From the NCBI GenBank assembly GCA_963666835.2, contig CAXXGO010000006.1:1472001-1536000 (forward strand): 64,000 nt of DNA. Reading direction: 5' to 3'. How positions within the stretch are numbered: the stretch's first letter is position 1; each line of letters begins with the position of its first letter. The position numbers and the translations under genes are program-made. The notes below the pieces were generated by a model that searched no databases, was not told the DNA's origin, and saw only the letters and a program-made list of their open reading frames with translations. This stretch comes from Phycisphaerae bacterium (GTDB lineage Bacteria; Planctomycetota; Phycisphaerae; UBA1845). Of this stretch, positions 1,440 to 53,402 are shown piece by piece.

Positions 1440-1670
1440 CTTAATTAGCAGGTTGTGGCGCCGGCGGACTGCCACGTCTTCCACCGGTGCGCGTAATCTG
1501 ATCGCAGAGTGGGCCGGGGAGTGCCCCGGCAATCGTAGCGTCGTGTTTTTCGCCCGGCGTAGCGTTTGGGCCGGCACCTCTTTGGCAAAGTACGTGCAGC
1601 GCCCCGTGCACTTTGGGCGGCGAGTGCCAAATGGAATGACATGCATCTGTTTTTTTGGAGGTCAAGGACG

Positions 1671-4310
1671 ATGAAAAAACGACAAGTCCGCGTAAAGCCG
1701 GCAGTCGCGAGAATGGTGTTTGTAGCGGTTGCGGTGTTCTGTTGGGACAGCCAAGGCGCATCGAGTGATCCCGAGGGAGTTGCCCCACTTTCTGAACAAG
1801 GCGAGGCAATCCCCTGCGCATCTTGGCCAACCGGAGCCGACGTTCGAAACGGCGCCTGCGGGCGCACCGTGGGGGCTTGCTGCGCCGCCGACGGCAGTTG
1901 CACACCGGATCTGTCACCCCAGGACTGTGACACCACCGGTGGCGCGTTCCTCGGTGTCGGCACCACGTGCGCGCCAAACTGCTGCCCGCCGCCGGAGACG
2001 GAAACGGGGGCGGACGCAGCTTGCGACATCTACGCGTGCCACGACGGAACCGACTGGGTCGCCCCCTACGATCTGTGCGGGGCGAGCGATCCGGGCGATC
2101 CAGACTGTGACGTCAGCGCCGGCGAGACTTGCCTGCTCCGCGCAACCGGTCCGACTGAGTATGCCATCGATATACCAACATACGGCGACCCCCCGAACGT
2201 AATCACGTTCATGGGAGACAGTAGCGGTCACGAGCCGTACTTCACTTCTGAAGACGGCGACGACTGCAACCTCGGGAGCGCTGCCGACCCCGGCTGGTAC
2301 GAGAGCTTCGTCGTTACGAACAATGACGGCCCGGAGTACGATTGCGCGGTCGTCACGTTGGATTTATGCTGCACCGATCCGATTCATATTCCGGCCTACA
2401 TCGTGATGAAGGACTGCTGCCCGTGTCCGGGTGGAAGTTGCTGGGTCGAGCTCGATCGACGCGCCGACGGCAGTGCCAAGTATGGCTGGGGGCCGGACTG
2501 CGAAGTGGAGGTCGACGGCGTGGAATACTGCTGCCAGGAGGGCAACTTTGTCGGCCAGTTCATGGTCAGGTCGGGCCGCCATTCCTGGCAGATTGCGACT
2601 GGTCGGATCTGCGAGGGCACGATGCACGGTTGCGAGACCGATGACGACTGTGATCCGGGCGTGTCGTGCGTAGACGTAGCGGGGCCGTACACCGGTCACA
2701 TCACCGTCGAAGCCTGTCCGCGGGCGGCCTGCTGCTTGAACGCATGCAGCGACTCGGCTTCGCCGAACCTGGTACCTTGCTGGGACGACAGTGATTGCCC
2801 GGGTGCCGGGGCTACCTGCAATACTACATGCGAGGTTCGCACGCGGTTGACCTGCGATCTAGACCACGGGCAATTCCTGAAGTTCGAAAGCGGTACCGAA
2901 GAGACGTGCTCACCGAACCCGTGTGTTTGGGGCGTTTGCCTGTTTCCTGATGGAGTTTGCGATGATTCGGTCGCTTTTGACACTGAGGTTGAGTGCGAGG
3001 CGTTCGGGGGTGTGTTTTACGGAGGGATAACCTGTGATCTCGTGCCCTTCGGATGCCCGTTCGAGAGCAGCAGCACCTGCAAGGAGGAATGTCCGGACAG
3101 CGAGATTGTCATGAGCGACTTGGCCAACGAGATCCGGATCGCGGACGACTTCCGCCCGGCCGGCACTCAGATAGGTGAAATCTGCTGGACGGCGGGATAC
3201 TACGGCGGCAACGATGAGGTGGGCGAGTTTGAGTGTTCGAGCAACCCGCCCTGGGGCGCCTGGGTCGTGCGTTTCTATCAGGATAACGCTGGTCTACCGG
3301 GCACAGAGGTCGGACCGGCCGGGGGCCAGGAAGTCATTATTCTGGCGTCGAACCATCACGGCGGTACAAGCCGCCTGTGGGATTATCACGCGATTCTTCC
3401 CAGTGCGGTGGACGTCAATCCGGGCGACTGCTATTGGATGGAGCTTACCGGCAACGGTGAAGGCCCGGATGGCTGCCATACATACTTGTCCACCGCCATC
3501 GAGGGCAACGACTACAGTATGTGGGACAACCTCGAGTACGGATCCTACGGCCCTGAAGACGCGAACAATGTGGACATCGTCTTCTGTTTGGACACGGGGC
3601 TCTCTGGCACCACTGATTGTGACGATGTTGTGGCAGCTTGCTGCACTTGTCCGGGTTGCACGCCGGATTTGACCGAATCGGAATGCGTTAGCGATCTGGC
3701 CGGCGTCTGGCGGTTGGGGCACACTTGCGCGACCGCAGCCTGTCCCGACGTCGCTCCGCACAACGACGACTGTGAGAATGCCGAGATCGTTGCGGGAATG
3801 GACAGTTGGCGCTGCCGCGGCGGCCTCAACGACGGCGACCCGTGCGATATCGCTAATTGTCACAGCGACTGCCCGGATGACGGCGACGACATAGGTCGGT
3901 GTATTGGTTATCGCATCATCACATTTGACAACGTCTGCGCGGCACGAGAGAACGAGCCGCCCACAAGTTGCGGGGGAGTGGGCGATCTGCATTACGACGT
4001 CTGGTACCGGTTCACCCCGCAGATAAGCGGCGTGTTGACGGTTTCGTTGTGCCCATCCGATGTGAGCGACGGAGCGCTGTGGGATACCATGATAGCGGTC
4101 TATGATACGGTCACATGTCCGGTGACGGCCGGTGACGAGATCAAATGTGGCGACGATGAATGCGACTTCGCCGGCCCATCGGAGATTACGCCTACGACAG
4201 TCTACGCGGGCCTGGAGTACCTGATTCGCATCGGAGGTTGGTCATCGCCGGCAACCTACGGAAACCCGCGCGGTTGGGGTGAGGTGGAGTTCTCCTTTGC
4301 GGATGGGTGA
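1671..4310 (+). CDS. Large secreted Cys-rich protein (GACC repeats, PPC-like beta-sandwich modules); may read through UGA 4308-4310 into the next ORF
   Basis: GGAGG SD at 1657-1661; signal-peptide-like N-terminus; GACC/AACC repeats; module 'NDDCENA...DVWYRFTP...DTMIAVYD...YLIRIGGW'. Confidence 0.8.
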   Translation: MKKRQVRVKPAVARMVFVAVAVFCWDSQGASSDPEGVAPLSEQGEAIPCASWPTGADVRNGACGRTVGACCAADGSCTPDLSPQDCDTTGGAFLGVGTTCAPNCCPPPETETGADAACDIYACHDGTDWVAPYDLCGASDPGDPDCDVSAGETCLLRATGPTEYAIDIPTYGDPPNVITFMGDSSGHEPYFTSEDGDDCNLGSAADPGWYESFVVTNNDGPEYDCAVVTLDLCCTDPIHIPAYIVMKDCCPCPGGSCWVELDRRADGSAKYGWGPDCEVEVDGVEYCCQEGNFVGQFMVRSGRHSWQIATGRICEGTMHGCETDDDCDPGVSCVDVAGPYTGHITVEACPRAACCLNACSDSASPNLVPCWDDSDCPGAGATCNTTCEVRTRLTCDLDHGQFLKFESGTEETCSPNPCVWGVCLFPDGVCDDSVAFDTEVECEAFGGVFYGGITCDLVPFGCPFESSSTCKEECPDSEIVMSDLANEIRIADDFRPAGTQIGEICWTAGYYGGNDEVGEFECSSNPPWGAWVVRFYQDNAGLPGTEVGPAGGQEVIILASNHHGGTSRLWDYHAILPSAVDVNPGDCYWMELTGNGEGPDGCHTYLSTAIEGNDYSMWDNLEYGSYGPEDANNVDIVFCLDTGLSGTTDCDDVVAACCTCPGCTPDLTESECVSDLAGVWRLGHTCATAACPDVAPHNDDCENAEIVAGMDSWRCRGGLNDGDPCDIANCHSDCPDDGDDIGRCIGYRIITFDNVCAARENEPPTSCGGVGDLHYDVWYRFTPQISGVLTVSLCPSDVSDGALWDTMIAVYDTVTCPVTAGDEIKCGDDECDFAGPSEITPTTVYAGLEYLIRIGGWSSPATYGNPRGWGEVEFSFADG

Positions 4311-4922
4311 ATGTGTCACAGTCCGCCGGTCTTGGCGGATGCCCCTGAGGATGGCCCGAAGAATCGCTACCTCTCGATCATGGCGGATAATGACGGTATG
4401 CCAACAGCGCTGCTCGTCGAAGTGGCATCCAGCGAGTACTTCCCGGATTCGGTCGGAGAAGTCAAGTATGTTGGCCCGGTCACGGCTGGCGGCTACTATC
4501 CGCTGATCTCCACGCCGTTGGCCCAAGTCTTGCCAGAAGATCCGCTGCATATCTTCGACTGCATGATCCACCCGGCCGCGACCTTCGAAGTCCGGGCCGG
4601 TGATGGTATTAGTAGCTGGTCGCCTCCGCTCGTGATTGCGACGAGTCCCAGACCCGGTCTTAAGAAGTGGGGCGACTGTGTCGGGGCCTTTACCGGTACC
4701 TGGCAACACCCGGAAGGCAACGTGAGTATCGTCGACCTGATGGCTGCGTTGCAGGCATTCAGCAGGGCGCCAACGGCTCCACCGGATCACTGGGTGGACG
4801 TCCACGATGAGGGCCCGAACAACATCGTGACGATGTCGGACGTCCTGTTGATTGTGAACGCGTTCATGGGCAACGATTACCCGTACGATCCGGGTACCGC
4901 GGCGATGCCATGCACTGATTGA
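4311..4922 (+). CDS. In-frame continuation: NRY-motif plus dockerin-like domain homologous to the C-termini of the proteins at 36976-38766 and 39307-41118
   Basis: ATG directly follows the TGA in the same frame; 'KNRYLS', 'WGDCVGAFTG', 'PNNIVTMSDVLLIV...YPY' match the paralog C-termini; no signal peptide. Confidence 0.75.
   Translation: MCHSPPVLADAPEDGPKNRYLSIMADNDGMPTALLVEVASSEYFPDSVGEVKYVGPVTAGGYYPLISTPLAQVLPEDPLHIFDCMIHPAATFEVRAGDGISSWSPPLVIATSPRPGLKKWGDCVGAFTGTWQHPEGNVSIVDLMAALQAFSRAPTAPPDHWVDVHDEGPNNIVTMSDVLLIVNAFMGNDYPYDPGTAAMPCTD
4322..4339 (+). promoter_or_regulatory. Candidate bacterial SECIS hairpin
   Basis: UCCGCC-GGUCUU-GGCGGA stem starts after an 11-nt spacer following the in-frame UGA; G-starting GGUCU loop resembles the E. 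coli fdhF SECIS. Confidence 0.35.
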
Positions 4923-5066: not shown

Positions 5067-6440
5067 ATGTCCAGGACCCCGCGGTATGTTGCCGAGGGCA
5101 TCCGCCATGCAACGATTAATGGGCATCGGTTTCACCTTCGGCTCACCGATCCGACCCAAGAGAACTTCCTTTGGATCGACGGCCGGTCCCCGCCGCTGGT
5201 ACTCGACCAAGTGGCCGCGGAGTTCGTCGGATACCTCATCGATTCGATGTGGAAGTACCAGCAGGGGGCCGGGGATGAAAGCGACAAGGTCCGCGACGAA
5301 GTGGTCGAACGCATGTTCGAGCAGTACGGCCGGGCCTGGGCATTTGGCCGACAGCGCGTAACCCGCCAACGCATCCGGGCCGATTTGGACCGGATCTTCG
5401 GGACGTTAATGGTCGCGGCCGGTGGCGGCTGCCCGTTCGAGACGGGGCTCAAGACTCAGGAGATTCATCAGGAGGACTGGTCAGCCCCTGCGCGCATGGA
5501 CTTGGCAATCACCTATCGCTGCAACCTCAACTGTTCGCACTGCTACACCGGCGGCCCGCAGGAGACCGAGGAGCTTTCGCTGGATGATTGGAAGCGGGTT
5601 TTGGAGAAGCTCTGGCAGATCGGTATCCCGCAGCTCGTGTTTACCGGCGGGGAGCCCACCCTGCGCGAAGATCTCGTGTCTCTGATCGCCGAGGCCGACG
5701 AATTTGTCACCGGGTTGGTAACTAACGGGACGCGGTTGGCCGAGCTGGCCGAGCCGCTCCACGAGGCCAGCCTCGATTATGCCCAGGTCACCTTGGAGGC
5801 ACACGAGCCGGAGAAACACAATCGAATGGTCGCGGCCGGTGACGAGGACGCGTTTGCCCAGACGGTAGCCGGCATTCGCAAAGCCCTTGAAATCGGGATG
5901 GAAGTAGCGACTAACACGACACTCACCAGTGAGAATGCCGCTGGGTTCGAGGAGCTGTTGCGGTTTGGCAGGGACCTCGGCCTGGCTAACATGGCCTGCA
6001 ACTCGTTGATCTGCAGCGGCCGGGGTACCGCGGCCAAGCGTGACGACAGTCTGACCCCTAAAGACCTGAAAGGCATCTTGACTGCCGCGAACCGTACGGC
6101 GCAAGAGCTGGGCATCAACCTGCAATGGTACACGCCGACGTGCTACCATGAGTTGAATCCGTTGGAGCTGGGCTTCGGTCCTAAAAGCTGCTCGGCCGCG
6201 GCCCACAACATGACCATTCAACCGGACGGCACGGTTCTGCCCTGTCAAAGCTGGCCGGAGGCAGTGGGACGTATTCTGGAGGACGACTGGGGGAGCATCT
6301 GGGAGCACCCAGTGTGTCAGAAGCTCCGCCATCACGGCTTCGGCAAAGATCGCGCCGAATGTGCGGAGTGCGATCTGCTGGCGTTGTGCGGGGGCGGCTG
6401 TCCCCTGGAACACGGACAGATTCGCAAGGAGGGACCATGA
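5067..6440 (+). CDS. Radical SAM protein with C-terminal SPASM domain and probable N-terminal PqqD/RRE-like domain
   Basis: CNLNCSHC (CxxxCxxC), FTGGEP, SPASM Cys pattern CSAA..PC..CAECDLLALCGGGC; GGAGG SD upstream. Confidence 0.92.
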   Translation: MSRTPRYVAEGIRHATINGHRFHLRLTDPTQENFLWIDGRSPPLVLDQVAAEFVGYLIDSMWKYQQGAGDESDKVRDEVVERMFEQYGRAWAFGRQRVTRQRIRADLDRIFGTLMVAAGGGCPFETGLKTQEIHQEDWSAPARMDLAITYRCNLNCSHCYTGGPQETEELSLDDWKRVLEKLWQIGIPQLVFTGGEPTLREDLVSLIAEADEFVTGLVTNGTRLAELAEPLHEASLDYAQVTLEAHEPEKHNRMVAAGDEDAFAQTVAGIRKALEIGMEVATNTTLTSENAAGFEELLRFGRDLGLANMACNSLICSGRGTAAKRDDSLTPKDLKGILTAANRTAQELGINLQWYTPTCYHELNPLELGFGPKSCSAAAHNMTIQPDGTVLPCQSWPEAVGRILEDDWGSIWEHPVCQKLRHHGFGKDRAECAECDLLALCGGGCPLEHGQIRKEGP

Positions 6441-7399
6441 ACCGCTACGCTCTGCTGATCGGCATCGTCACCGGCATCACTCTGGTCCCCACCGGTGCAA
6501 CAGCCGACACCGGAACTTATGAGATTTCCGAGTACCGCGTGACGCTCGTGCCGCTTGAAGACGGTGTTGTCGAGATCACCTACTATCAGGAATGGCGAGT
6601 CACCGGCGGGAACATCCCCTGGATCACCGTAGGAACGGCTAACCGGAGATTCACGGTTCTACCCGACAGTGCCGGCGGAAGCGCCCGCAGCGTTACTCCG
6701 AAGAGCTCCGGCAACTGGTCCGGGGTACACATCGCGCTGGACAGAGAATACCTGCCAGGCGAGATTTTCGAAGTAAGTTTCAAGATCCGCCAGCGCGGGC
6801 TGTTCTATCAGGCCGACACGGGCTACCGGCTCGATTTCATCCCCGGCTGGTATGACCGGGGCAAGATCGGGAATCTCACCGTTGCGTTGGAGTTCTTCAC
6901 CGAACTGACCGGGGTCTCGGCCGGCCCGGAGCCGAGTGAAACAGCGCCGCAGCAACTGGTGTGGGAGCGAACCAACTTGCAGCCTGGCGAGCGGTTTCGG
7001 GTTGGCGTAACGTTCCCGCCGACTCTGTTTCCCGACAATATCGAGCTGGCGGAGACCTCACCCTACGACAAACAGGGCGGTTCGCGCGTCTCGCCCGTCG
7101 TTGGTTCCCTGCTGTTTTTTGCCTTCCTGGTAGTGATCGTTGTCATCTTGTTCGTATGCGCTAAGGGCGGACGTGGGAGCGACTACGGCGGGGGAGGAAA
7201 CGTCAGTATCGCAGGCATCCATGCGGCAACCGGTGGCCGGGTGGTCTCGTGCGCCTGTGCATGCGTGGCCTGTGCTTGCGCATGCGCCTGCGCCGGAGGC
7301 GGCGCCGCGGGATGCGATCGCAAACTGACACGCACCTGCCCATTGTGCGCATACTGCGAAGAAGAGGACTGTCCGCTACGAACTGGGACCCGACGTTAG
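6437..7399 (+). CDS. Single-pass membrane protein: signal peptide, DUF2207-like extracytoplasmic domain, TM helix, Gly-rich linker, Cys-rich CACAC..CACACACAGGG tail
   Basis: ATGA overlap with the rSAM stop codon; AAGGAGG SD; TM 'VVGSLLFFAFLVVIVVILFVCA'; 12 Cys in the last ~50 aa. Confidence 0.85.
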   Translation: MNRYALLIGIVTGITLVPTGATADTGTYEISEYRVTLVPLEDGVVEITYYQEWRVTGGNIPWITVGTANRRFTVLPDSAGGSARSVTPKSSGNWSGVHIALDREYLPGEIFEVSFKIRQRGLFYQADTGYRLDFIPGWYDRGKIGNLTVALEFFTELTGVSAGPEPSETAPQQLVWERTNLQPGERFRVGVTFPPTLFPDNIELAETSPYDKQGGSRVSPVVGSLLFFAFLVVIVVILFVCAKGGRGSDYGGGGNVSIAGIHAATGGRVVSCACACVACACACACAGGGAAGCDRKLTRTCPLCAYCEEEDCPLRTGTRR

Positions 7400-36975: not shown

Positions 36976-38766
36976 CTACGGGCAATCCGCCGGGGCGCTG
37001 AACGGATACGCCAGCCCCCGGAAGCCTTGACCGATTCGCATGATGTCCGTCATATTGACCACCGCGTTGGGAACCTCGGGTTCGACGTCCGACCAGGTCC
37101 AACGTGGGGCGCTCGGGTTTCGCTGGAAGACCTGCACGGCCGCCATGACGTCGTCCATACTCACAATCCCGTTAGGAGCCGACCAAGACCCGCCCGTGAA
37201 CGGACCCACAACGTCACACCAGTACTTCGGAGCCGGTATCGCCGTAGACGTGAGTTCAATGGAATCGCTCGTTCCCGCACCTGCCAGCGTCGCCCGGACC
37301 TCATAAGCCGAGCCCGGCACGATCATACAGCCGCGAAGTTGAATGACGCCCTCCGGCCAGAGCCGCACTACCGGATAACTCACCACCGAAGACGCGAAGT
37401 CCCCGGACTCTGTTTCCACCGGCGCGCCGGCCCAGCCGACCACGCCGACCGAATCAGGGAACAGCTCGCTGGAAGTCAGGATCACCTCGAAAGCCACCGG
37501 AGTACCCGCGTTCTGCGGAACGAAGGATATATAGCGATTGGTGGGCACATCGTCCGGCGCCCCGGCCGCCAGCGGAGCCTCGACCTCAAAAGAGCATACG
37601 CAGTACCCGTACATCGGGTCTACCGGATCCGTCTCGCATATCCAATCGTCCGGGCAATCGACGTCGCCGCCGGGGCAGGCGATCATCTCGTCCGCCGGCA
37701 GCCCGCCCACGCACGCCCCGGCCGTGGCCGTGCCGTCGCAGGTGTCGTCGATGGAACACGGGTTACCGTCGTCGCAACCGGTTCCTGACGGAAGCGGATC
37801 ATGCACCACAATGCCCGTTAACGGATCGCAGACATCCTCCGTACACTCGATGCCGTCGTCTAAGAGAATCACCGTGCCGCCATCCGGATCGCAGCATTCG
37901 GTACCGACTTCGTAGTTTGGATCGAAGTGACACCAGCCCGTCTCCGTATTACACCAGTCGTTTGTGCAGGAGTTCCCGTCGTCACATGTGGTGCACGGCT
38001 CGCACGCGTTCGTCGCACAGGTGCTGCCGTCGGAGAAGAAGGAGTACATCCCCCCGTCCGCCAACGCCGCACACTCCGCCTCGGTGACGTCGTCGGCACA
38101 GCCGCCCCCGCTACCGGTGTCGTAACAGCATTGGCCGGTAACCACAGTCAGCAAGGCCGACGTGCGGACCAGACCTGGGATGAACTGCGCAATCTCATCG
38201 TGCATGAACGTTCTCGACGTATCCGCCATCATCTGGATTTCGTAGGTGCCTTTTGCGTACGTGGGCACGTCCACGATCCACGTTCCGCCATAGCACGTCG
38301 TACCGGGGTCCGTCACGGAACCGCCCATACACACGCTGCCTAGCTCACAATCATCGTGGGGCCCCGGCAGAGGTGTTAACCCGAAGAACACCCAATCCGG
38401 ACGGTTGGAATCGATGAAGCAGCCGTCTTCAGTGAACGGACGCCACGTACTCAACGGCTCCCCAATCCCGTTGTCGTACGATGCCGGATTGTCCGACGTG
38501 GCCTGATACGCCCCCAGCGCCGGGTCACCCGGCGCCTGGCCCCAGCCGCGCACCTTCAGTTCGAACGTGACCTGACAATCCCCGGTTTCGAGGATAATCT
38601 CCGACGGCACGCCCTCCGTCGTCGAATTGTCAATGATCGCACCGGCCCCCGTCGTGCTGACCGGCTGGTACCGAAACTCCTGGCCGGAAACCTCCCCAGA
38701 GTGGCCCGAAACAACCAACATTGCCACAACCACCATCATCCACATTTCTCGAGAACATGCGTTCAT
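36976..38766 (-). CDS. Secreted Cys-rich protein: cohesin-like N-domain, CDDG..C..D.C repeats, C-terminal dockerin-like domain (paralog A)
   Basis: GGAGG SD; signal peptide; colinear homology with 39307-41118. Confidence 0.85.
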   Translation of the reverse strand: MNACSREMWMMVVVAMLVVSGHSGEVSGQEFRYQPVSTTGAGAIIDNSTTEGVPSEIILETGDCQVTFELKVRGWGQAPGDPALGAYQATSDNPASYDNGIGEPLSTWRPFTEDGCFIDSNRPDWVFFGLTPLPGPHDDCELGSVCMGGSVTDPGTTCYGGTWIVDVPTYAKGTYEIQMMADTSRTFMHDEIAQFIPGLVRTSALLTVVTGQCCYDTGSGGGCADDVTEAECAALADGGMYSFFSDGSTCATNACEPCTTCDDGNSCTNDWCNTETGWCHFDPNYEVGTECCDPDGGTVILLDDGIECTEDVCDPLTGIVVHDPLPSGTGCDDGNPCSIDDTCDGTATAGACVGGLPADEMIACPGGDVDCPDDWICETDPVDPMYGYCVCSFEVEAPLAAGAPDDVPTNRYISFVPQNAGTPVAFEVILTSSELFPDSVGVVGWAGAPVETESGDFASSVVSYPVVRLWPEGVIQLRGCMIVPGSAYEVRATLAGAGTSDSIELTSTAIPAPKYWCDVVGPFTGGSWSAPNGIVSMDDVMAAVQVFQRNPSAPRWTWSDVEPEVPNAVVNMTDIMRIGQGFRGLAYPFSAPADCP

Positions 38767-38942
38767 CTTCACTACCTCCATCTGGCATGTGGTCCTTCGA
38801 AACTCTACGCCATCCCAACTAAGTGCCGCCCCTGGCGTTCTTGACAATCGTCGCACCGCGCGGGTGAACAACTGTCAAGACAGTAGGGGCTTCGTTCACC
38901 TAACTCCCGCATTCCCGCGGCTTACGCCACGGGCTTCGAAGA

Positions 38943-39306: not shown

Positions 39307-41118
39307 CTACGGACAATCCGCCGGATCGCTAAATGGATACGGCTGTCCCTGGAACCCGAACACTATCTGCATGACGTCCGTCATGTTGACAATCGCGTTG
39401 GGTTCCTCACCGTCAACGTCCACCCTCGTCCATACGGGGGCCGTCGCCGAATGTTGGAACCCCTGAATCGCGGCCATGACGTCGTTCATCCCTACGACCC
39501 CGTCCGCCGCCGTCCACACTTCGCCCGTAAACTCACCGACCACGTCGGCCCAGTGTTTCGGAGTCGGCTCTGCCACCGTCGCGCGAAGCAGCGGAGAGCC
39601 GAAGACCAACCCGTCGGTCGTGGTGCGGATCTGATAAACGCCGGCCGGCGTAATCTCACAATCTGCCAGGTGCAATAATACGGAAGAATACGGCCACTCG
39701 CGGTAGACCGGCGTATCCACCACGCGGACCACGTATTCGCCGGACGCAACTTCCGTCGGATCACCAACCCAGCCAACGACACCCGTGGAGGCAGGGAACA
39801 GCGTGCTGGAAACAAGAGAGACCTCGCAGGCTGCGGCACCGTAATGATTGAGTAAGGCAAAGGACACATAGCGATTCGTGACCGTATCATGTGGCGGCCA
39901 CGGCATAACTACGGCGTTAAGCTCACTCGTGCAATCGCAATAACCGTACATTGGATCAAGCATATTCCTCTGACACCACCAAGGGGCCGGACACTCCATA
40001 TCCGAAACACACTCGATCATCTGATCTTCCGGCATGACGCCGACACATGCATCCGGATCACCCGTACCGTTGCAGACGCTCTCCGTTGTGCAGAAGTCGG
40101 CGTCATCGCATGGCTCGCCGGCCGGGAGAGGATTGTGCGAAACCTCGCCAGTCCACTCGTCGCAGATGTCTACAGTACACGGTAGACCGTCGTCAATTGG
40201 AGTCAACGCCCCGCCATTCGGATCGCAGCAGTCGGTTATGAAGTTGTAGATTGGGTAGTTGTAGCAGTACCCGTTGTACTCGCATACATCCATAGTGCAA
40301 TCGCTCCAATCGCTGCAGTAGGAATCCCCCATGCACGGATCACATGAGTAGTCTTCACAAACCGCACCCGCGAAGAACATGTACGAATGGCCGGGCGAAG
40401 TTAACGCGTCGCACTCGGCCTCTGTTACGCCGTCGGCGCAGCCGTTTTCGATACCCATATTATAGCAGCACTGCCCCGTAACGATCGTCACCAACCCCGG
40501 CGTGCGAACCAGACCGGGAATCAGGTTGGCGAAGTCGTCGTTCATGAACGTTTTCGCCGTGTCATCCACTATCTGAATCTCGTACGTGCCCTTGGCCCCG
40601 CCCGGTAGATCCAGGATGAGCGTACCGCCGTATTGAATCGCACCCGGATCGGACGGGAATTCTCCCATACACGTTGAACCCATCTCATAGTCCGGACTGC
40701 CAACGTAGACCGCGGCGAGCGGATCCAAACCGAAATAAACAAAGTCCGACCGGGTTTCGTCGATGAAGCAGCCGTCCTCGGTCAACGGGTGATATGCCCC
40801 GATCGTCGCCCCGATCCCGTTATCGTACGACGCCGCGCTGTCCAAAGTCGCCTGATAAATACCCAGTGCCGGAGAGCCCGGCGCGTGCCCCCAGCCGCTC
40901 ACCTTCAGCTCGAGCGTTACCTGGCACCCGGCGGCATCCAGAATGATCTCCGACGGCGTACCCTCCGTCGCCGAGTTGTCGATGATGGTGAAATCCCCGG
41001 TCGCACCGACCGGCTGCCACCGCAACTCTTGCCCATCAACCGCGGCTCCGCCACCAACGATCGCAATGACCGCAACAATCCCAACGACCGCCCGAAATGT
41101 ACGACGACTCGCCTTCAT
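39307..41118 (-). CDS. Secreted Cys-rich protein, paralog B (cohesin-like plus dockerin-like)
   Basis: GGAGG SD; shares IIDNS.TEG.PSEIIL, SYDNGIG, AKGTYEIQ, NRY.SF, PNA.VNMTD, YPFS.PADCP with paralog A. Confidence 0.85.
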   Translation of the reverse strand: MKASRRTFRAVVGIVAVIAIVGGGAAVDGQELRWQPVGATGDFTIIDNSATEGTPSEIILDAAGCQVTLELKVSGWGHAPGSPALGIYQATLDSAASYDNGIGATIGAYHPLTEDGCFIDETRSDFVYFGLDPLAAVYVGSPDYEMGSTCMGEFPSDPGAIQYGGTLILDLPGGAKGTYEIQIVDDTAKTFMNDDFANLIPGLVRTPGLVTIVTGQCCYNMGIENGCADGVTEAECDALTSPGHSYMFFAGAVCEDYSCDPCMGDSYCSDWSDCTMDVCEYNGYCYNYPIYNFITDCCDPNGGALTPIDDGLPCTVDICDEWTGEVSHNPLPAGEPCDDADFCTTESVCNGTGDPDACVGVMPEDQMIECVSDMECPAPWWCQRNMLDPMYGYCDCTSELNAVVMPWPPHDTVTNRYVSFALLNHYGAAACEVSLVSSTLFPASTGVVGWVGDPTEVASGEYVVRVVDTPVYREWPYSSVLLHLADCEITPAGVYQIRTTTDGLVFGSPLLRATVAEPTPKHWADVVGEFTGEVWTAADGVVGMNDVMAAIQGFQHSATAPVWTRVDVDGEEPNAIVNMTDVMQIVFGFQGQPYPFSDPADCP

Positions 41119-52343: not shown

Positions 52344-53402
52344 ATGAACGCGAACACGCCAATACGACTGACACAGCTGACAACGGCCGCGGGGTGAGCC
52401 GCCAAGATGGCGCCTGACGCGCTGGCGCAGGTACTGCGCCCCCTAGCCGGTATGTTCTCGGTCGATCAGTTCCCCCAGCTTCTGGTTGGGTTAGGGGGTA
52501 CCGACGATGCAGCCGTGTACAAAGTCACGGATGACGTGGCTCTCATCGCCACTCTCGACTTCTTCACTCCGATTGTCGATGACCCCTACCAGTACGGCGC
52601 CGTCGCGGCCACCAACGCCCTCAGCGATATCTATGCCATGGGAGGCGAGGTTGCGATTGCTCTGAACATATGCTGCCTCTCCGAGTGCCTGCCGGTTGAC
52701 ATCATCAGCGAGATCCTGCGTGGCGGAGCTGACAAGGTCCACGAGGCTGGCGGGGTCCTCGCGGGCGGTCATTCCGTTGACGATAAGGAGCCCAAATACG
52801 GCCTGGCCGCGATCGGCTTTGTCCATCCAGACCGGGTGCTTACCAAGAACGGTGCCAGGCACGGCGATGTTCTCGTGCTCACCAAACCGCTGGGCGTCGG
52901 CATCATCAGCACCGCCTTCAAGGCCGATCATGCGCGTCCTGAGCACATGACGGCGGCCGTCGAATCCATGCTCAGGCTCAACCGCACTGCGTCGCAATTG
53001 CTTCAAGCACATGGCGCCCGTGCCTGCACTGACGTCACCGGTTTTGCTCTCCTCGGCCATTGCTCTGAGTTGGCCGAGAAGAGTGACGTGTGCCTTCGCA
53101 TTCATGCCACTACCATACCTTTCCTGCCGGGCGCCGAAGAATATGCCGACAGCTGGCTGTTTCCCGGCGGCACTGCGCGCAACAAGCACGCATATCAATC
53201 GCGCGTTCGCGTGGCCGACGGCGTCATCGAAGAAGTCGAACAGTTGCTCTACACGCCGGAGACCTCCGGCGGCCTGATCGCGACGATCCCGGCAGACCGG
53301 CTCGATGACCTGAAGTCCGCCTTCGACGCTGCCAGGCACCCCCTGTGGGTGATCGGCGAGGTGAGCGCCGCCTCCGATCATCACATCGAGATCATTCCTT
53401 GA
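52344..53402 (+). CDS. selD: Selenophosphate synthetase, selenocysteine form (UGA 52395-52397 = Sec18)
   Basis: IRLTQLTTAAG-U-AAKM at the catalytic G(C/U)xxK; DDAAVY, DFFTPIVDDP, NALSDIYAMGG, TDVTGF, PETSGGL. Confidence 0.95.
52424..52440 (+). promoter_or_regulatory. Probable SECIS hairpin of selD
   Basis: GGCGCAG-GUA-CUGCGCC perfect 7-bp stem; G-starting loop 33 nt after the UGA. Confidence 0.6.

Follow-up and report, generated by a model that had tools for sequence, protein, structure and literature searches.

Does an in-frame TGA in the middle of a long gene of a planctomycete bacterium end translation, or is it read as selenocysteine (Sec)? The question is raised by the gene at positions 1671 to 4922 of a 64,000-nt stretch of the Phycisphaerae bacterium assembly GCA_963666835.2 (contig CAXXGO010000006.1, positions 1,472,001 to 1,536,000 of the forward strand), called the window hereafter. 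As described in an initial annotation made from the letters of the window, an 879-residue open reading frame (ORF) ends at TGA 4308-4310, and the same frame runs on across it (FADG-stop-MCHSPP) for 203 open codons, up to TGA 4920-4922. We consider that this TGA, codon 880, is probably decoded as Sec, with a hairpin downstream as the candidate selenocysteine insertion sequence (SECIS). The features under discussion are collected in Table 1.

The TGA at 4308-4310 is real DNA. Contigs of five out of seven runs (X1-X5) cross the codon and carry no other letter there, X6 and X7 being without coverage; the five runs stem from two studies with three samples between them, X1 is possibly the source itself, and rare alleles are lost in contigs. 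The check called for in the initial annotation thus found the codon, and the sequencing error that it had kept as an alternative is contradicted by the contigs of the five runs; an assembly error is ruled out in the same way.

The frame beyond the TGA is constrained. Over 198 aligned codons 3′ of it, the ratio of nonsynonymous to synonymous substitution rates (dN/dS) is 0.31-0.36 against four paralogs, compared with 0.32-0.55 for the same region among three paralog pairs and about 0.22 for the upstream part, and neither a stop nor a frameshift occurs in the 3′ region at dS 0.64-0.75. In branch-specific counts, the difference was not significant (p 0.16 and 0.26). Signs of a nonsense pseudogene, such as relaxed selection or further lesions 3′ of the stop, were not seen, although a recent stop would look alike: with the 3′ frame under purifying selection like that of the paralogs, the stop is either read through or else recent.

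The host genome (G000; 6.0 Mb, 92% complete) has the machinery to insert Sec. The genes selA and selB score over the cut-off, tRNA-Sec (selC) scores 68.4 bits, and there are two selD genes, which bears out the Sec-decoding host that had been deduced from the Sec-type selD in the window. Genes of known selenoprotein families in G000 are selD, a molybdopterin enzyme (in what we take to be a formate-dehydrogenase-like context), a SelW-family and a peroxiredoxin-like gene, and three Omp28-related genes; a search for MvhD/FlpD in G000 gave no match. The second selD (C1:1328296-1329225; L038) has no TGA and lies inside a 740-codon frame, hence it is fused to another domain; akin selD fusions occur in about ten genomes of the family.

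The hairpin and the residues aligned with codon 880

The hairpin reported in the initial annotation (UCCGCC-GGUCUU-GGCGGA) is present at 4322-4339, where it follows an 11-nt spacer and forms six Watson-Crick pairs, with 17 nt between the UGA and its loop. The in-frame UGA, the 11-nt spacer, the 6-bp stem and the G-G-U start of the loop are all as in the SelB/SECIS system of the Escherichia coli fdhF type. According to PMC13188914, the bacterial SECIS (bSECIS) model is defined by a loop of 3-9 nt, a stem of 4-16 bp, a spacing of 16-37 nt, a minimum free energy of -7.5 or lower and a G in the first two loop places; applied by hand, all of these hold for the hairpin (-11.2 kcal/mol in a 22-nt window), which moreover sits in a host with the full selA/B/C/D set. 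PMC4605307 describes the SECIS as a stem of 6-8 bp with a conserved G about 20 nt after the UGA and a flexible hinge. Folded as 53 nt, the hairpin region does not exceed its shuffles in stability (z 0.11; 101 of 200). With a pattern that was drawn up after the hairpin was known (GGU loop, at least six pairs, 16-22 nt after a six-frame stop), we found instances to be rare, with 36 after 157,659 TGA, 9 after 50,747 TAA and 10 after 60,206 TAG.

A log-odds model specific to the lineage was derived from 77 distinct Sec sites of related genomes (21 Omp28-like, 28 SelW, 20 selD and 8 peroxiredoxin), collected from at most 30 loci per search, with the peroxiredoxin motif pattern catching 8 of 30 loci. 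The loops at these sites measure 5 nt, or 4 nt mainly in the peroxiredoxins, at offsets of 18, 21, 32 and 24. The hairpin scores 12.6 bits, loop-length penalty included, to be compared with 9.8-18.4 bits for the seven known-family Sec sites of the host and with 11.6 bits for the 10th percentile of the training sites; 33 of 54,998 sampled TGAs reach its score. It is the only hairpin in the gene with at least 9.8 bits, and among the 130 codons of the gene that are one change away from TGA, codon 880 alone is within its range. In the whole of G000, a SECIS-grade element follows 12 of 25,923 Cys codons.

The UGA falls at a domain boundary. In an alignment-based structure model of residues 694-1083 (predicted local distance difference test (pLDDT) 80.6; used instead of a single-sequence AlphaFold model, pLDDT 31.8), a beta-sandwich ends at residue 878, the UGA follows two residues on, and a linker leads to a second beta-sandwich with two helices, the NRY domain. 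The initial annotation had placed the UGA at a Cys because in two NRY paralogs of the window the domain is preceded by C-x-C (YCVC, YCDC). That argument is wrong, since the module upstream is not homologous: YCVC and YCDC close a different, Cys-rich module, and the NRY Asn comes 21 and 19 residues after them, versus 18 and 16 in the UGA gene. A better Cys/UGA pair, as far as alignment can tell, is seen in homologs of the same architecture from other genomes. The UGA column is Cys in seven of the nine two-domain homologs of the outgroup genome G075 (alignment A3), five of these Cys being at the same distance from the PRG-type and NRY anchors, or one residue off; in P0097 and P0090, a Cys is likewise as far from the PRG motif as the UGA is. 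A domain-1 tree puts the G075 clade as sister to the subfamily (99/95), and a domain-2 tree puts the UGA gene outside four paralogs (87/91; midpoint root here and throughout). The position may have been either kept or regained in the UGA gene, which the trees do not settle.

The linker Cys tends to occur together with a Cys in a loop after a conserved Trp. Among 40 rows of alignment A4 (the UGA protein included, four rows not being true two-domain proteins, and kin not being independent), 25 have both, 10 neither, one the loop Cys only and four the linker Cys only, which suggests a disulfide whose partner is lost in the UGA protein. In the family, the linker Cys and the Cys of the Y-x-A-x-C loop would probably be the bonded pair.

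Under decoding as Sec, SelB would bind the GGU hairpin and have Sec inserted at UGA 880; the product, a predicted secreted protein of 1083 residues, would carry Sec in its hinge, where the beta-sandwich is joined to the NRY domain. The family's linker Cys codon may have turned into TGA by a single base change, ahead of a hairpin that P-P-V-x-A coding had already supplied. With the loop Cys missing, U880 would most likely form a Se-S bond with the new Cys882 or with another spare Cys, in a role that is presumably structural rather than catalytic; a selected redox function is unlikely, and the UGA may be either selected or merely tolerated. With termination competing against read-through, the gene would yield a full form with the putatively anchoring domain and a form of 879 residues that lacks it, their proportions depending on the supply of selenium. 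The mechanism would be ordinary SelB/SECIS recoding; its carrier, its position and its distribution, a single gene, are new.

Weighing selenocysteine against rival explanations

A number of observations weigh against Sec at codon 880, the first group of which concerns the hairpin. It has no bulged U17, which is essential in the E. coli fdhF SECIS according to PMC8659212. Its 6-nt loop also differs from the 4-5 nt of the lineage, and a 6-nt loop is the best element at none of the 77 training sites and none of the 13 TGA sites of S8 proteases described below. The score leans on likeness to SelW, falling to 4.65 bits when that family is taken out of the training set. Across 101 genomes of the family, TGAs followed by the hexaloop pattern show no enrichment (34 matches, against 44 in a reversed control), and of 30 matches inspected only TGA 4308-4310 has long open frames on both sides. 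The paralog at C1:365661 has Gly at the UGA column, and thus no UGA, together with a hairpin of 12.2 bits at the same offset, and the hairpins of other paralogs score 7.0 bits (three) and 4.2 and -2.6 bits (two). The geometry may be a product of the P-P-V-x-A linker coding or the relic of an older SECIS. As it may arise from such coding, recurs in paralogs without UGA and lacks the bulged U17, the hairpin is weaker evidence than the initial annotation took it to be.

The second group concerns the relatives. At the UGA column, the six nearest paralogs have Asp, Asp, Asp, Glu, Pro and Gly, and P0016 and P0024 have no Cys. The seven homologs with Cys come from one genome and are 31-34% identical; in alignment A4, the G075 Cys occupy a neighbouring, gap-separated column at the same residue index. 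In a concatenated tree, the UGA gene is nested among Cys-less paralogs. A conserved TGA in related genomes had been proposed as a check, and none was found: there is no other TGA at the site among the 150 matches listed (61 more were obtained) from 279 genomes of the order, with six candidates scored per genome and an internal stop in none of the listed matches but the UGA gene, and no ortholog in the 101 family genomes, in scans of Joint Genome Institute (JGI) metagenomes, whose 247 and 32 matches to the pattern are all unrelated, or among 5.8 billion proteins or 50%-cluster representatives. Unlike in the fdhF type, the UGA was found in a single genome, with nearest homologs that lack Cys. 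About three of the ten nearest relatives in G000 are broken by frameshift, insertion or truncation, so that gene decay is common there and a recent stop is plausible. Finally, the candidate was picked from a very large scan for this very coincidence.

If a dispensable member of the large paralog family had recently suffered a nonsense mutation, for which a Cys codon is the simplest origin, only the 879-residue form would be made, the hairpin would be a by-product of linker coding that SelB does not use, and the 3′ part would not have had time to decay. The equal-score hairpin in a paralog without UGA, the 17/6 stem geometry that recurs in some Cys homologs, the hexaloop unseen at 90 Sec sites of the lineage, the broken subfamily relatives and the missing conservation all suit this explanation, as does C1:357139, a multi-copy gene with a plain nonsense change from R to TGA. 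The 3′ frame would still be stop-free with a probability of 0.84 at 0.01 and of 0.42 at 0.05 neutral substitutions per site. The mutation must, however, have struck the one of 130 reachable codons that the gene's only SECIS-grade hairpin serves, and downstream of Cys codons in the linker region, 13 of which were scored in homologs of other genomes, no more than 4.6 bits is reached. Mid-gene in-frame stops occur in four of the 58 NRY matches in G000, and all four are TGA, with no TAA or TAG; these genes are the UGA gene, two Omp28-like genes and the S8 subtilisin-like gene C6:506508, of which the latter three belong to families with a conserved TGA. We regard a nonsense mutation as rather unlikely. 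Our odds are a judgement, in which a within-gene coincidence of about one in 130 is weighed against selection from a very large scan. If only a nonsense allele, the codon-880 TGA would be ordinary.

The stop might also be a true, selected one that frees the N-terminal protein, with the ATG adjoining it (TGA-ATG) restarting a 203-residue protein behind a weak upstream GGAUGG. The position of the stop coincides exactly with the domain boundary, and two paralogs consist of the NRY domain almost alone. These stand-alone paralogs, however, have a signal-like N-terminus of their own, which the 203-residue ORF lacks; the other intact NRY genes are mostly single fusions, and the hairpin would be left unexplained. 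Such a functional split is very improbable. Hardly credible is a short compensated frameshift in the linker with the TGA as its by-product: of the 15 nt from the TGA onwards, 12-13 are not those of the nearest paralogs, and allowing gaps raises the alignment score slightly, yet 763 of 2000 shuffles of this segment gain as much from gaps, other segments of the gene are equally divergent, and the in-frame reading matches the Cys homologs.

Decoding of codon 880 as Sec therefore stays at the strength given at the outset, and no selenoprotein family that we tested fits the 1083-residue protein. The earlier claim of a UxC protein outside the known families holds to this extent, without the reason that had been given for placing the UGA at a Cys.

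Hairpins, SECIS-grade or partial, also occupy this linker position in genes without UGA, namely C1:365661 (L051) and the paralogs L047 and L048; they are either by-products of coding or relics of a lost Sec site. Sister paralogs with the same hairpin and no UGA make the birth of a bacterial SECIS from coding sequence directly testable.

In-frame TGA in S8 subtilisin-like and Omp28-related genes

An in-frame TGA is found in 13 of the 72 matches listed for an S8 subtilisin-like family, in seven genomes of three genera; six of the 13 genes are from a single genome, and related copies do not count as independent (loci L210, which is G000 C6:506508 on the minus strand, L260, L263-L266 and L275-L282). 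The 13 TGAs share a single site away from the catalytic residues; it comes after the His motif and its following strand, and in two of the genes it falls within a loop that has an insertion. In subtilisin numbering, the column presumably belongs to a substrate-binding strand. Hairpins follow 12 of the 13: six have a GGUC loop at offset 17 after an 11-nt spacer (one with a compensatory change in the stem), the same offset and spacer as at codon 880; four have a 5-nt loop at offset 21, and the remaining two lie at offsets 33 and 39. In ten homologs that lack the TGA, the site is occupied by Ser (7), Tyr, or Gly or a gap, never by Cys, and one of the ten has a hairpin nearby.

One of these genes, C6:506508, was first taken as a SECIS-less nonsense control. 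The TGA conserved across its family rules it out as such, which also speaks against nonsense at codon 880; as its element scored -2.0 bits, the lineage model misses some real elements.

To judge by the conserved TGA of the S8 proteins, non-catalytic sites of exported proteins are likely positions for Sec in the lineage, and offset 17 is in use there. This result is stronger than the codon-880 case and independent of it. No selenoprotein S8 model was found in NCBIfam at E 1e-10, the accessible part of a 2026 review makes no mention of peptidase, protease or subtilisin, and that of the BSepDB main text none of peptidase or subtilisin; our literature search returned no report of selenocysteine in an S8 peptidase or subtilisin, nor of an Omp28 selenoprotein. 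The S8 TGA genes are likely an undescribed selenoprotein group, the novelty of which is not secure (the BSepDB family table and Haft and Tolstoy's families were not covered). If confirmed, they would be natural serine proteases with Sec at a position that is mostly Ser.

The codon-880 protein resembles the S8 TGA proteins in being of an exported type, in the NRY domain at the end of the G000 copy, and in a hairpin that is often 17 nt after the UGA; it differs from them in that they keep the TGA in seven genomes, have loops of 4-5 nt and have mostly Ser in homologs. It also resembles the Omp28-related selenoproteins (NF045500; three in G000, two of them NRY fusions), which are large, have a signal-like N-terminus and would carry an exported Sec. 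These have U-x-x-C near the N-terminus, a 5-nt loop at offset 18 and a conserved TGA, none of which applies to the codon-880 protein, which does not match the NF045500 model. The Omp28-related genes themselves match NF045500 below the cut-off; matches are present in 26 of the 101 family genomes, most of them with TGA and a SECIS with 5-nt loop at offset 18. The U-x-x-C genes of this group are at C1:1961944, C6:886751 and C6:954496 in G000 (L052-L054) and at L090-L119, and their C-terminal fusions vary between an NRY domain and a multiheme cytochrome region.

According to PMC13188914, nearly all known selenoproteins have Cys homologs, and most are redox proteins of the thioredoxin fold. Prediction methods would miss both the codon-880 and the S8 cases, because their filters need Cys/Sec pairs and conservation of the TGA. 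That the family repeatedly writes Sec into exported non-redox proteins at non-catalytic sites, the S8 proteases being one conserved case and codon 880 a young one in which selenium supply decides whether the C-terminal domain is retained, is conceivable, though we hold it to be doubtful.

Layout of the gene and its surroundings

Table 1. Features of the UGA gene and related genes in the window
Feature	Position	Strand	Remarks and basis
Whole gene	1671..4922	+	1083 aa with the UGA read through, 879 aa without; 77 Cys
Shine-Dalgarno-like GGAGG ahead of ATG 1671	1657..1661	+	Sequence
Signal-peptide-like N-terminus	1671..1760	+	Basic, hydrophobic, small-residue end; predicted by eye
Cys-rich and acidic modules common to close paralogs	1761..3908	+	Sequence comparison
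Beta-sandwich domain, galactose-binding-like	3909..4304	+	PF23759 at E 0.0015, below cut-off; structure model
In-frame TGA, codon 880, candidate selenocysteine	4308..4310	+	Sequence, contigs
Cys882, would pair as U-x-C	4314..4316	+	Absent from 5/5 close paralogs aligned
SECIS-like hairpin	4322..4339	+	6 Watson-Crick pairs, 6-nt loop opening GGU, 17 nt from UGA to loop
C-terminal NRY domain	4356..4919	+	Model: beta-sandwich and two helices; dockerin-like is a lead only
Paralog with NRY domain	36976..38871	-	YCVC closes a different module
Paralog with NRY domain	39307..41118	-	YCDC closes a different module
Sec-type selD	52350..53402	+	TGA at 52395; own SECIS stem-loop 52424-52440, 5-nt loop, 32 nt after UGA

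The longest ORF has an alternative start at TTG 1566. Judged by its N-terminus, the protein is predicted to be secreted; over residues 64-1082 it is 57-68% identical to three close paralogs. At E 0.01, the whole 1083-aa protein has no matching family in Pfam or NCBIfam. On the domain before the UGA, PF23759 (GBD_T9SS_assoc) scores 19.3 bits (cut-off 27), and 22 of 56 aligned homologs match it at E 0.01. A thioredoxin fold with UxxC or CxxU was not found: there is no NCBIfam match, and residue 880 is modelled in a linker between beta-rich domains. Foldseek returned generic beta-sandwich matches only, with template-modelling (TM) scores of at most 0.21 by query length, and a profile search found no solved structural relative.

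The NRY domain gives 58 tblastn matches in G000 and matches in 47 of the 101 family genomes. The initial annotation had called it NRY/dockerin-like; its presence in both window paralogs stands, while the dockerin part is a lead only. Dockerin_1 (PF00404) matches neither the protein nor any of the 56 aligned homologs, which together match 12 families; among the nearest Atlas clusters, most are from Planctomycetota, and one has 22% Dockerin_1 at score 0.88. The protein is thereby similar to planctomycete surface proteins with PF23759 and a dockerin-like C-terminus, both below the level of membership; in our literature search, no such protein was reported as a selenoprotein. An anchoring role of the C-terminal domain is putative.

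Close paralogs form a cluster in G000 at C1:1707300-1729300 and C1:1476322, several being broken by frameshifts, insertion or truncation; in two paralogs, the NRY domain stands almost alone behind a signal-like N-terminus. Genome-wide screens for interrupted genes by codon score and self-tblastn are dominated by shadow frames and give no clean count of pseudogenes. In-frame stops without a SECIS-like element occur in RHS/YD-repeat-like frames at C6:1059011 (TAA) and C1:1482039 (TGA). Elsewhere in G000, a TGA after a Cys-containing motif ends long frames at C3:198372 (-), C5:137719 (-), C1:1801405 and C1:1803499 (+), where no GGU hairpin was found; two of these sites are near-identical copies that end in K-F-C-stop-G-G.

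Directly 3′ of the UGA gene lies a radical SAM/SPASM gene (window positions 5067-7399, +), followed by the gene of a membrane protein with a Cys-Ala repeat tail that has no Pfam or NCBIfam match; the two are possibly a maturase and its substrate.

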